Assembly (NCBI GenBank): GCA_951406725.2
Contig: OX597818.1
Location: 64,728,001-64,792,000 of the forward strand
Length of the DNA stretch: 64,000 nucleotides
Direction: 5' to 3'
Source: Octopus vulgaris
Lineage: Eukaryota
Of the stretch, positions 7,200 through 63,058 are shown one piece after another. Position 1 is the first letter of the stretch. Every line of letters begins with the position of its first letter. The notes beneath the pieces are model-generated. The model made no database searches, was not told the origin of the DNA, and was given only the letters and a program-made list of their open reading frames with translations. Both the position numbers and the translations under genes were made by a program.

Positions 7200-7237
7200 T
7201 ATATATATTATTTAATAAACTCAATGTATGTTTTTAG

Positions 7238-7326
7238 GTGCTACGCGTAGTTTCATGCGGTGAGAGCATGCCAATGCCAGATAGTATTTGTAACACGTCT
7301 GGTGTTTCAGGACAATCTTCAGGCAC
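7238..7326 (-). ncRNA. Type-I hammerhead-like ribozyme motif with extended helix II
   Basis: GTGC-CTGAAGA-[long helix II]-GAAA-CTACGCG-TA-GCAC; helix I GUGC/GCAC, GUA cleavage triplet. Confidence 0.6.
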
Positions 7327-7474
7327 TGTCCACATGACACAAGAAACTAAGTATGTGACGAGTTGATGAGAGAAAAATCAAGAAAAGGCGAGGAAGAACT
7401 AAATAAATAAGTGAGGAGTCTGCAAAACTGACAAAAAAAAAAGGAAACAAAAAGAAACAAATGGTATCTTTCGT

Positions 7475-7586
7475 TTCAGCATTCCACTTTTTATATCTAT
7501 TTCTTTTTCGCTTTTTCTCTCAACCTAGCGTTCAGCATTCCACTTTTTATATCTATTTCTTTTTCGCTTTTTCTCTCAACCTAGCG
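7475..7586. repeat. 56-bp perfect tandem duplication
   Basis: TTCAGCATTCC...CAACCTAGCG at 7475-7530 and 7531-7586. Confidence 0.95.
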
Positions 7587-7979
7587 TTCAAGTTTTAGTT
7601 TCCTATGACATGGGGGAAGTACATGAAGATTGTGCTGAGTCGCCAGATGTGTAAACATTGTCTGGCATGGTCTCATCATATGAGACTAATAGTAATACAT
7701 AAAAAACATATAGTGTGTTTATTTAGATAATATTTATCTCACACCAGAGAGAGTACTTTTTCTGGGGACTACACAAGAGAACTGAATACAATATATATAT
7801 GTGTGTGTGTGTGTATGTGCGTGTGTGTGTGTATATATAAGTATATATATATAGATATATATATATACATATATATACATATATACATACATACATACAC
7901 ACACACATATATATTATATCATGTTATATTATACTATACGTTTGTGTGTGTGTATACATGCATGATCTAATTGCTCAAA

Positions 7980-8185
7980 TTCTTGGTAAAACGATAGCAA
8001 TTTTCGGGAAGGTGTTAAATCGATTTCATCCACCCCAGCGCTCAGCCGGTACCTATTCCGTCAGCCACGGCGCAATGAAATGCAAAGTTCACCTGGGTAG
8101 AATTTGAACACAGAGTGTAAAGACATACGTAATGCCGCTAAGCTTTTTGCATGACGTGCAAGCTATTCTACCAGCTCACCATCTT
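7980..8185 (-). mobile_element. SINE family A, diverged
   Basis: Reverse complement of the family A head and core (GAATTTGAAC, CCAGCTCACC). Confidence 0.7.
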
Positions 8186-9424
8186 ACATAATAATGCATT
8201 AATATATTGATCGATAATCCAATAACACTGCCTTTCTGTGTGTGTATGTGTGTGTATGTGTGCGTGTGTGTATGTGAATATGAACACATAATGTTATTAT
8301 GCATCTTATATTAAATTTCCAATAACTGCCACTGACCCCCACGAAATATTAAGCACCGTTTCCTATTTATAGTCTGAAGCATTTGATTTATCCAGTGCCA
8401 TCCTATATATATTACGTGTTCTTCTGTAGCCCCATGAGAGTCCAAGTATAATATATATTACATAATCCTTTATATAAATGTATACATAGGATACTCAAGT
8501 AGATATTGCACATAAAACAAATATGTTTTGTTGTTGCCCTTAATGTATCTTATCTCTCATAAATCTATAAAGCCATTTTAAATTTAGGAATCGTTAGAAA
8601 ATTATAGCATCAGTTACGCAATAGATTCACCATTTGTAAAATAGAATTCTCATGATTTATAGAAAATTGCTAAGGATATAAGTAATATAAATATTAAGCA
8701 TCTACAAGAAAGCTGGACTTACCGATTTTGGTACGAGATAAAATACAACCAGTTCTGTATAGAAGTTAAGATATTATATATCTCTACGTGGATATCCAAT
8801 TTTGTGTACGGCAAGATATTAATTACGATAATTTACATGTTGGAAATAATTATCATAATTTCGTTGTTGATGTTTAGATAATGTCGATGGTTGAGTGAGT
8901 GCATTTGTTGGTTTGAGGAATGATACTACTAGCGGGATAATCGCATGCTCATGATATTATTTAGGGCCGACAATAAGAATATAGAATCTTAAACATCGTT
9001 TGAAATTGTTCCCTGCTGCGTAGAAAGAGACGATAATGCTGGTAATGAGTTTTTGATGATGATGATGATGATGATGATGATGATGATAATGACGACGACG
9101 ATGACGTCGATATTGATGACGATAATGAAGTAAACGAAGCATGTACCTATGTGTCGGATTCCTTAGAACAGAATGAGTCACCAGGGCGTATCTTTATGGA
9201 CGCCGAGATGATATGGACAGCTGACTGGACATTTAGCTTAATCTGGCGACAGTAAATTTTGCCATTGGAGACACACACACACACATATGCACACACGCAA
9301 CACACGCGCGTAAAGTAATTCACACGTGTAGATGGAAAGATCGAGAAACAGTGGCGGGAGAGAGAGAGAGAGAGAGAGAGAGAGAGAGAGAGAGAGTGAG
9401 AGAGTGAGAGACATAATTTAACTC

Positions 9425-9833
9425 TCTCTCTCTTTTACTCTCTTACTTGTTTCAGTTATTTGACTGCGGCCATGCTGGAACACCGCCTTTTAGTCGAGCA
9501 AATCGACCCCGGGACTTATTCTTTGTAAGCCCAGTTTTTATTCTATCGGTCTCTTTTGCCGAACCGCTAAGTGACGGGGACGTAAACACACCAGCATCGG
9601 CTGTCAAGCAATGCCAGAGGGACAAACACAGACACATAAACATATACATACACATACATACATATATGCGACAGGCTTCTTTCAGTTTCCGTCTACCAAA
9701 TCCACTCACAAGGCATTGGTCGGCCCGAGGCTATAGCAGAAAACTCTTGCCCAAGATGCCACGCAGTGGGACTGAACCCAGAACCATGTGGTTGGTAGGC
9801 AAGCTACTTACCACACAGCCACTCCTGCGCCTA
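9425..9833 (-). mobile_element. SINE family B, full length
   Basis: High similarity to the reverse complement of 55931-56340; tRNA-like head, CCTTGGGCAAG CORE-like motif, internal microsatellite, AAAAGAGT-type tail. Confidence 0.92.
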
Positions 9834-60189: not shown

Positions 60190-60485
60190 ATATGAGTTCG
60201 TGTGTTGAAGCATATTCTGCTGTGTCTGGGGAAAGTCATTTTCTTTTTGTGCCTTATAATGTAACACACTCACCGGTAAAATTTCCACTTTTTTATTATT
60301 TTTATTTTCCTAAAAGTTTTGCTGCGTCTTGCAACGTTTTCAACAGTCATGACTATTGAAATTTTTGCAAGATGTAACGAAAGTTTTAGGAAAATAAAAA
60401 TAAGAAAAAAGTGGAAATTTTACCGGTGTGTGTGTTAAATGATAAGGTACAGAAAGAAAGTGACTCTCCCCAGACACAACAGAAT
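60190..60485. mobile_element. Palindromic foldback element with HHR-like motifs near the centre (copy 2)
   Basis: ~135-bp arms around CAGTCATGACTA; same family as 25888-26153 with the unique extension on the opposite side. Confidence 0.85.
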
Positions 60486-61331
60486 TAGTGAATATAGTTT
60501 CATGAATATTACTTGAAATGTTCGTAAAATATATCTTATGTATTCCAATCTGAAGAACAGTGAAGATTTGAAGAATCATATATATCAAGAAAATATACTG
60601 CTCTCTACTTTAAAACTGTATTCATTATTGTAAGTTTGTCCAACTTTGTCGACGATGACTTGAGACATCACACAGGAGAGGACATAGTGTCCAGATGTCG
60701 TAATTCGGTCAGATGTATGTTCATAGCCTTCTGCTGCAGGTGTGACTCTTATCGTCTGCAGGGACTGAAAAGAAGGAGTTGGTTATTGACAACCACAGTT
60801 TGCACTTTATGTGTGGCCAGGCAATGCGGTTTTGTTTGCAGGAGGTGGCGGTCACTACAGTCCATTCATAGCATCGTGTAATGTGTCTCGTTCTTTAGAA
60901 GTAATTGCAACGAAACTAATTCCGTAAATATATACAAGTCAAAATTACAATGGCTTCAGGCAGAATAAGGAAACTTGCATATGAGCGCACAATTGCATGC
61001 ATACATAAATACATACATGAAATCATACATACATACATACTTACATACATACATACATACATACATACATACATACATACATACATATATATAAGCACAC
61101 AAACATACATACATGCATGGATACATACAAATGTACGGAAACACATAACAAATATATATTTGTGCTTGCATGGGCATATATCTATATCTGTCAATATATA
61201 TATAATGTATATATATATTGTTGTATTTAGGGATGGTTATGTTGCCAGTTTAGCCAATAAAAACACATGCACTATAGATTTGGTGATAATTTGCTTCAGC
61301 TTTATTATATTTTTTACATTAATCCTATTTC

Positions 61332-61374
61332 GGCCAGTTATTTCGTCACACTTATGTGACCTCATCAGTGGTCC
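61332..61374 (-). ncRNA. Hammerhead-like motif inside a ~220-bp insert (61217-61437) in (TA)n
   Basis: GGACCA-CTGATGA-G-GTCACA-TAAG-TGTGAC-GAAA-TAAC-TGGCC; U16.1 apparently mutated. Confidence 0.6.
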
Positions 61375-62412
61375 TTTCCTTTCTTCGTTCTTATTTACGT
61401 GTCTCTCCTTACAAACGATCAGCCATTTTGTATTTTGTATATATATATATATATATATATATATATATATATATATATATAGAGAGAGAGAGAGAGAGAG
61501 ATAGATAGATAGATAGATAGATAGATAGATAGATAGATAGATAGATAGATAGATAGATATAGATATATACATATATAGATATGCATATACACAAACATAC
61601 ACATGATCGTATGGAAGTAATCAGCAAAAGCTAAAAGACTTATGTAACAAAACTGATGGGAGTTAGAAAAGGGAAACTAACAAGAATCCTACGGTGGTGC
61701 CGACTGAAATGTATAAACATATCTACAGAGGATGATTGAAAAAATAACGATAAATAATCACCAGATATCACATGAGACATCTTTCCAAATTATAGGTACT
61801 TGTGTAAACGAAATGTTCGTTGTGTTTCATCTCATTAAGCGAAGCATTTTCTATAGGTGGAGATTTTTTCGTCAGCAATCTGTTCGCCGAAGACCGACCT
61901 GGAGGTAAATGACTTCAAGATGCTAAATCCCTGAACGGTAACCAAAATAAACCTCACTGCACTCATCATGGGAAAGAATTACTAGATAAAGCCGTTAGTT
62001 ACAAAGCGACATCCTAATCCCTAAGCAACGGAGACTGTTGTAGCAGCAAATTAAGAAATCAAACATCCAAGATGCCCTCGCGGTTATACACGATTGTTGC
62101 AGTAGACAGTCGTACAGAACTTGTTGTATCTGCCAACAGCTAACACGAAACTTCCAGATAATTTCTCGTTTAGTGTTTTCAGAAAGCAATAAACGAGTAT
62201 GAAGTACGTGTACGGTCTGTAAATATATTCCTTTCGCGTTTGTATTTTTAAGTAAATGCCCCACAGATGTTATTTAAGAAGCTGTCCCGTCAGAGAATAT
62301 TTTCAAAAACTATATTTGCTATACATACTCAGTGTCTTCTGCATAATATTAGCCACTACACACATATTTTTTCTCTCCTTGTTTCTCTCCTTGTTTTTTT
62401 TTTTCTGTATCC

Positions 62413-62448
62413 CTTTCTGTAGAAGAGTGTAGGCTCGAAACGTAAAAG
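62413..62448 (+). ncRNA. Hammerhead-like motif (8-nt core type)
   Basis: CTTT-CTGTAGAA-GAG-TGTAGG-CTC-GAAA-CG-TA-AAAG; palindromic ACGU helix III. Confidence 0.5.
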
Positions 62449-62593
62449 ACTTTTTCTATTCGTTAGCGTTATACTAATACATGTGTTTGCTTTGTATACC
62501 ACCTGTCTTCGTCTTTTTTTTCGTAAACTCTCCGTATATATATATATATATATATATATATATATATATATATATATGTATATATATATATAT

Positions 62594-63058
62594 GGGTGTG
62601 TGTGTGATTGTGTATAGAAGAATATATTAATAAAAAGAATTCCAACCTTGTCTGATTTTCACGTTTTATTTACAATCTTATAATGATATATTATAAGATA
62701 ATATATTATAATTGAATAAAATAAAATGAAATAGTAGAATGTTAAATATTCATTCTGATTGAACTAGTACTTTCATGCATTGAATTCTGCAATCTTCGGG
62801 TTCATGTAGTAGTGTTGACAGTCATGCTTCGACTGTCAACACTACTACATGAACCCGAAGATTGCAGAATTCAATGCATGAAAGTACTAGTTCAATCAGA
62901 ATGAATATTTAACATTCTACTATTTCATTTTATTTTATTCAATTATAATATATTATCTTATAATATATCATTATAAGATTGTAAATAAAACGTGAAAATC
63001 AGACAAGGTTGGAATTCTTTTTATTAATATATTCTTCTATACACAATCACACACACCC
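62594..63058. repeat. Near-perfect long palindrome (~230-bp arms, 7-nt spacer) with mirrored HHR motifs
   Basis: 62594-62823 is the inverse of 62831-63058 apart from one TG unit; spacer ATGCTTC; bounded by (TA)n. Confidence 0.95.
62850..62894 (+). ncRNA. Minimal hammerhead-like motif, CCGAAGA core (mirror copy 62760-62804 on minus)
   Basis: TGAAC-CCGAAGA-TTGCA-GAATTCAA-TGCAT-GAAA-GTAC-TA-GTTCA; helix I 5 bp, palindromic AGUACU helix III, CUA triplet. Confidence 0.7.

Follow-up and report, generated by a model that had tools for sequence, protein, structure and literature searches.

We analysed a 64,000-nucleotide window of the Octopus vulgaris genome (assembly GCA_951406725.2, contig OX597818.1, positions 64,728,001 to 64,792,000 of the forward strand), in which six families of short inverted repeats are associated with hammerhead ribozyme-like motifs. 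The inversions are probably head-to-head insertions of the end repeats (pseudo-long terminal repeats, pLTRs) of Penelope-like elements (PLEs), in which each cut strand of the target primes reverse transcriptase (RT) at one of two start sites on the element RNA. The footprint itself is real and largely known, an ordinary structure that carries a useful mechanistic hint; the head-to-head pLTR with a one-sided tail has already been published (PMC3846280, PMC8557442, PMC4209133).

By self-BLAST of the window, local inversions were found at all seven places where a first-pass annotation had described six recurrent families, every one of them with its arms head to head. We refer to the families as A (62.8k), B (24.6k), C (26.0k and 60.3k), D (22.3k), E (7.2k) and F (11.7k). 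Arm identity ranges from 100% in A (231/231) to 79% in E (136/172), with 117/135 at 60.3k, 63/72 at 24.6k, 62/68 at 26.0k, 53/60 at 11.7k and 78/94 at 22.3k. The families had been called unrelated, and at the DNA level they are: representatives of the six gave no BLASTN similarity to each other at E<0.1. The symmetry axis lies ~23 nt from helix I at 62.8k, 2 nt at 24.6k, 10-15 nt at 26.0k and 4 nt at 60.3k, and at longer distances at 7.2k and 22.3k, in agreement with the original reading; among genome-wide copies an axis near the ribozyme is not universal. The arms are listed below, with positions within them numbered from the predicted hammerhead cut (minus, upstream; plus, downstream).

62591..62823, minus strand: family A inverted arm; pLTR running from -65 through to the end of the tail; U4C-variant hammerhead core at 62799-62793
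62831..63061, plus strand: family A direct arm; pLTR running from -58 through to the end of the tail; core at 62855-62861, with cleavage predicted after 62889; flanked on either side by (TA)n
24573..24644, minus strand: family B inverted arm; no tail, end near +34; core at 24636
24648..24796, plus strand: family B direct arm; 72-nt tail, end near +109; core at 24656; flanks carrying a 7-nt direct repeat
25877..26021, minus strand: family C inverted arm; no tail
26018..26190, plus strand: family C direct arm; tail; U3-A8-type core at 26023; helix I of just 3 bp
60155..60354, minus strand: family C second copy, inverted arm; tail
60345..60485, plus strand: family C second copy, direct arm; no tail
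22250..22349, minus strand: family D inverted arm; no tail; begins at the hammerhead core (22349)
22349..22666, plus strand: family D direct arm; tRNA-like head at 22349-22423 (A-/B-box-like motifs), (AAT)n, hammerhead core at 22534-22540, tail
11650..11728, minus strand: family F inverted arm; 5' end at -11, core absent
11728..12174, plus strand: family F direct arm; tail; core of G3-C8 type near 11748, decayed; interrupted by a SINE-type (short interspersed element) insertion
7201..7460, minus strand: family E inverted arm; no tail; hammerhead-like core represented by its first half at 7322; approximate inner boundary
7480..7790, plus strand: family E direct arm; tail; core at 7623, decayed; approximate inner boundary; putative ribozyme fold

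To judge from their sequence, families A, B, C and D are pLTRs of endonuclease-bearing PLEs, because longer genomic copies run into open reading frames (ORFs) for RT and/or a GIY-YIG endonuclease. Searching the 2.8-Gb genome, with copies fetched by motif patterns, we obtained 1,100 exact motif matches for A, 651 for B, 1,590 for C, 4,927 for D and 1,248 for F; family E gave 10 matches with one mismatch allowed. Family A is the pLTR of 4,271-bp units arranged head to tail, with tandem copies 4,271 bp apart forming the pLTRs; each unit encodes ORF1 (454 aa) and an RT/GIY-YIG ORF (775 aa), the latter matching the Pfam domains RVT_1 (E 7.6e-7, 0.1 bit below the cut-off) and GIY-YIG (E 2.7e-5). The tandem units are near 100% identical between copies, and the element is young. 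In family B, RT and endonuclease remnants lie upstream in a longer copy at one locus (L089; tblastn to family A, E 1e-12), and longer copies of family C continue into a GIY-YIG ORF (E 2.8e-5). The family D head stands ~30 nt beyond the stop codon of a PLE RT ORF in 19/19 copies, all fetched by that ORF, and RT matches to family A occur on the element strand in 7 of the 19 loci (E down to 4e-29). Pfam did not find GIY-YIG in two decayed family D copies; from its motifs we take the region to be an endonuclease, and in several copies (L293, L307, L312) it reads YKG in place of the YIG of GIY-YIG enzymes. For families E and F, tblastn gave no RT/GIY-YIG link in 10 and 73 loci, respectively, and in none of the 73 F copies was shared sequence seen to extend further upstream than about -59. 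The links in four families, together with variable 5' ends and target duplications of variable length, uphold the initial proposal that the inversions are by-products of PLE integration rather than the terminal inverted repeats of a transposase. A separate PLE RT/endonuclease ORF remnant was observed at 28552-29536 on the minus strand of the window (43% to the family A RT, E 7e-47), with a hammerhead-like descriptor match at 29753 (minus strand), just upstream of it.

The presence of a ribozyme on the duplicated segment was assessed with a descriptor that allows the published PLE variants; it was written after the motifs had been seen, and the copies were fetched with those same motifs. It passes in 30/30 genomic copies of A, 11/30 of B, 24/30 of C, 20/30 of D and 27/30 of F, compared with 4/6000 shuffled segments, and so predicts, by our own definition, a minimal type I hammerhead in the pLTRs of five families. 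A family E ribozyme is not established because 0/10 copies pass, and the left arm at 11.7k has no core; the original observation is confirmed in part. Among the inversion arms of the window, the descriptor finds just three matches, in the two arms at 62.8k and in the left one at 24.6k, and among the Rfam rows listed no hammerhead appeared, just hairpin-type microRNA noise. In its available portion, PMC4209133 describes PLE pLTR hammerheads as minimal type I, with an extra base between positions 9 and 10.1 and a U3-A8 variant, and reports Schistosoma pairs on opposite strands, 100-700 bp apart. The octopus motifs share the palindromic minimal helix III, the extra base and the U3-A8 variant with these ribozymes, but have U4C cores in A and B and a G3-C8 core in F, and their cleavage is predicted.

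In five families the 3' ends are fixed at two positions each, at +143 and about +170 in A, +37 and +109 in B, about +98 and +160 in C, about +55 and +93 in D, and about +87 and +140 in F. Target duplications were scored in 85 insertions of B, C, D and F, 37 of which are microsatellite-flanked, where duplications stay hidden. Duplications of 10-16 nt of unrelated sequence, slightly overstated since one mismatch was allowed, were found in 29 of the 48 insertions with unique flanks, compared with 23 of 726 mismatched flank pairs used as a control. They bracket the whole inverted unit.

We then turn to the 5' ends, which set the position of the axis. Family A was surveyed at 73 loci picked by a ribozyme-spanning motif from the first 100 of about 1,100 matches listed. 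With ends truncated by a locus edge set aside, 91 remain, spread between +17 and -4012. Of these, 28 fall at -50..-85, including 12 at -80/-81, and the 12 ends in -86..-300 give, by hand count, an expectation of ~2 per 36 nt. The peak is seen both in solo copies (10/49) and in inverted arms (18/42). Because the loci had been chosen by a motif spanning the ribozyme, family A ends abutting (TA)5 were also counted genome-wide, giving 88 rows at -80 (72 places once 16 doubles had been removed by hand) versus 1 at the predicted cut. A TATA-like box read in the sequence begins 30 nt upstream of -80, with CCAAT motifs further upstream. The 5' peaks of the other families lie near -43 in B, which has CCAAT and a weak TATA-like motif, near -43 in C and near -59 in F. 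In family D, which serves as a natural control, 26 of 38 head-bearing arms end at -6..+3 of the first base of the head, ~250 nt upstream of the cut; because the peak moves there with the head, it appears to track the likely RNA 5' end and not the ribozyme. Position -80 in A and the tRNA-like head in D look like transcript starts. These distributions in A and D speak against the original view that the inversions are centred by the ribozyme; the axis would lie just upstream of the hammerhead because, in most families, the hammerhead sits 40-80 nt inside the transcript, and at 22.3k, where the likely start is 250 nt away, the peak moves too.

The family D head (22349-22423) shows A- and B-box-like motifs on reading, and ARAGORN found no tRNA gene in the 22.3k copy. 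We considered family D as a stand-alone tRNA-derived SINE and rejected it, as the head follows the PLE ORF in all of the ORF-fetched copies. The D pLTR begins with this tRNA-like A/B-box head, possibly a polymerase III-type promoter. ORF pieces of a long interspersed element, which we take to be R4/Dong-like from their motifs, occur within the (AAT)n spacer of several copies (L299, L304, L159, L160, L168).

How the two arms relate to each other was examined in 85 resolvable pairs of families A, B, C, D and F; 20 unresolved pairs and family E were set aside, and 29 F copies with one shared junction were counted once. The tail is present on exactly one arm in 82 of the 85, and in family E it was one-sided by eye in 3 copies. 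In correction of the first description, the insertion at 62.8k is almost symmetric, with a tail on both arms. Comparison of 5' reach in 81 pairs found the tail-less arm longer by >10 nt in 33, the tail arm longer (nested) in 15 and the two equal within 10 nt in 33. Family A joins mostly show 0-6 nt of overlap. Minor variants are common to both arms more often within than between insertions, in 12/22 versus 112/536 comparisons in C and 6/8 versus 28/232 in F, with no informative sites in A, B and D; such sharing is not constant and is consistent with a single RNA or with a single active subfamily.

We infer that these data are best accounted for by two separate primings, one on each cut strand. 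Both cut target strands would each prime RT, one per start site on the element RNA, and the two fixed 3' ends may correspond to the two RT start sites known from an anole PLE. With both start sites near the transcript 5' end, the cDNAs would be short; they would run off at the transcription start, or stall slightly earlier, and would then be joined end to end. The comparison is with Poseidon of Anolis carolinensis, which in vitro cuts and extends both strands and whose RT starts at two internal sites that bound the tail and lie near the 5' part of the RNA, without a need for ribozyme cleavage (PMC11167929, available portion). Its two start sites resemble the two tail-bounding 3' ends seen here; inverted insertions, or run-off at the transcript start, are not discussed in that portion of the paper. 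We also put forward, tentatively and as somewhat short of an even chance, that overlapping twin priming is obligatory: one enzyme dimer would nick both strands and prime two cDNAs at adjacent start sites of one RNA, and both would run off at a pLTR start, of polymerase II type in A and of tRNA-like polymerase III type in D. In L1 twin priming, both target strands also prime, and an inversion arises when their products are joined through microhomology, with arms that copy different parts of the RNA. The PLE arms differ in that they overlap and share the same 3' region.

Several observations weigh against two primings with run-off. Three pairs are concordant in their tails (62.8k, L148, L215), and two arrangements are tail to tail, an E copy (L206) and a D pair (L287). 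The positions of arm ends come from manual reading of BLAST tables. Families E and F have no ORF link, and a suitably spaced TATA-like box is missing from family C; the promoter evidence inside the pLTR consists of sequence motifs, and the transcript starts at the peaks are putative. In the available portion of PMC11167929, use of the two start sites shows no difference between strands, which alone would not force one tail per insertion. Position -80 of family A is also the 5' base of a 7-bp hairpin (-80..-55), and 8 family A ends, the window's 62.8k copy among them, lie on its 3' side, at -53..-65, where RT stalling may contribute. Lastly, the 33 symmetric and 15 nested pairs of the 81 are compatible with fold-back.

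Fold-back self-priming, which the first-pass annotation had suggested, would have one cDNA fold on itself, or an antisense template prime itself as proposed in PMC3846280 (available portion), with an endonuclease trimming the tail off one end. Beyond the symmetric and nested pairs, it gains from natural short palindromes at the A and D peaks and from the excess of variant sharing within C and F insertions, although shared variants can also be explained by two primings on a single RNA or by a single active subfamily. Simple fold-back is excluded for 33 of the 81 pairs because neither arm contains the other: each has sequence absent from its partner, and a copy templated by a target-anchored first cDNA must nest. 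Were the hairpin excised and trimmed later, the direction of the difference should be fixed, yet it is 33 one way and 15 the other; the same 5' peak also appears in solo copies. We consider fold-back unlikely, if deserving of serious attention.

Priming on both strands could also combine with a 5' peak that marks stalling of RT at an RNA hairpin just upstream of the hammerhead, in place of run-off. The 7-bp stem of family A and the second cluster of ends beside it would suit such stalling, as would the tRNA-like structure in D. The main peaks, however, lie on the far (5') side of these structures, in A 30 nt below the TATA-like box and in D at the first base of the head, which makes stalling an improbable source of the peak. 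We give very little credence to the idea that ribozyme self-cleavage creates an RNA end at which template switching or fold-back takes place. A few partner arms do end at 0 to +7 (L118, L142, L181, L161), but helix I offers microhomology for those joins, the single solo end at the cut stands against the genome-wide pile-up at -80, sequence upstream of the cut is retained in nearly all arms, and cleavage is dispensable in vitro (PMC11167929, available portion); for families A and D, an origin of the axis at the ribozyme cut is largely refuted.

Least credible of all is that the palindromes are miniature inverted-repeat transposable elements (MITEs) moved by a DNA transposase, or artefacts of long-read assembly. 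They are short, palindromic, abundant and AT-rich in their targets, as MITEs of DNA transposons with terminal inverted repeats are; many copies lie within (TA)n, and one family F palindrome has an identical junction in 29/73 copies. That palindrome, however, is carried inside a larger repeat of >2 kb. Invariant symmetric ends, fixed-length duplications and a matching DNA transposon had been named as what would overturn a retroelement origin; instead, many copies are solo, the ends are asymmetric and vary, the duplications vary in length and sequence, and the same ends occur on RT-encoding elements. The ORF partners found encode RT in place of a transposase, no search aimed at transposases having been made. 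Diverged arms and one-sided tails rule out an assembly artefact, and the MITE reading is already refuted for families A-D. The >2-kb repeat carrying the F palindrome (L178, L216-L225, others) has a sharp left end and an internal tandem array, and its copies are 94-97% identical; its start resembles that of non-autonomous Helitrons.

Other features of the window were noted. A SINE-type insertion with an 18-nt duplication lies at about 11839-12071, inside the family F direct arm, and related copies nearby give an 11834/14025 inverted match. Further local inversions are found at 17397-17689, 36272-36381, 49024-49201, 53880-54284 and 56949-57021, and hammerhead-core-like strings at 17217 (plus strand) and 61368 (minus strand). 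Outside the window, a different hammerhead-core-like repeat occurs ~150 nt upstream of a family D copy (L147).

The structures agree closely with published inverted-pLTR PLE insertions, as far as the available portions of those sources extend. In the Pen2a, Pen2 and Pen3a elements of Adineta vaga, inverted pLTRs stand head to head, with palindromes at the junction and the tail on one of the arms; 8-10-bp duplications and TATA/initiator (Inr) motifs accompany them, and self-priming was proposed for these elements (PMC3846280); the legend of Fig. 2 in PMC8557442 depicts the same layout. In the Drosophila virilis Penelope, the promoter lies inside the pLTR, with a start 46 bp above an intron (PMC2377424), and this intron ends at helix I (PMC4209133). 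The octopus insertions share with such insertions (PMC3846280, PMC8557442, PMC2377424) the head-to-head arrangement, palindromic junction, one-sided tail, duplications that bracket the entire unit, partial tandem copies, TATA/Inr-like motifs within the pLTR and (TA)n targets. They differ in being mostly MITE-mimicking stubs of 0.2-0.5 kb, with tails of ~27-72 nt against the 30-40 quoted. In their available portions, the published accounts give no counts of junction positions and propose self-priming or endonuclease trimming, and an account of active Penelope and MITE families in an octopus (PMC13282606) mentions neither hammerheads nor palindromes. Our literature search, outside which older reviews and subscription papers lay, found no report tying PLE inversion junctions to transcript starts, nor of twin priming for PLEs or a tRNA-like PLE promoter.

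The main weight of these findings lies in annotation, with five families of 651-4,927 exact motif matches each in the genome, whose stubs structure-based MITE finders could misfile as DNA transposons. The counts also bear on how PLEs make inverted ends, since the nearly invariable restriction of the tail to one arm, and the arms that do not nest, argue for two primings rather than the self-priming already published; the question is testable in an existing purified PLE system. If twin priming is indeed obligatory, a single reaction would account for inverted pLTRs, for the one-sided tail and for MITE-like palindromes in their thousands, and the transcription starts of PLEs could be located from palindrome axes with no data beyond the genome sequence.

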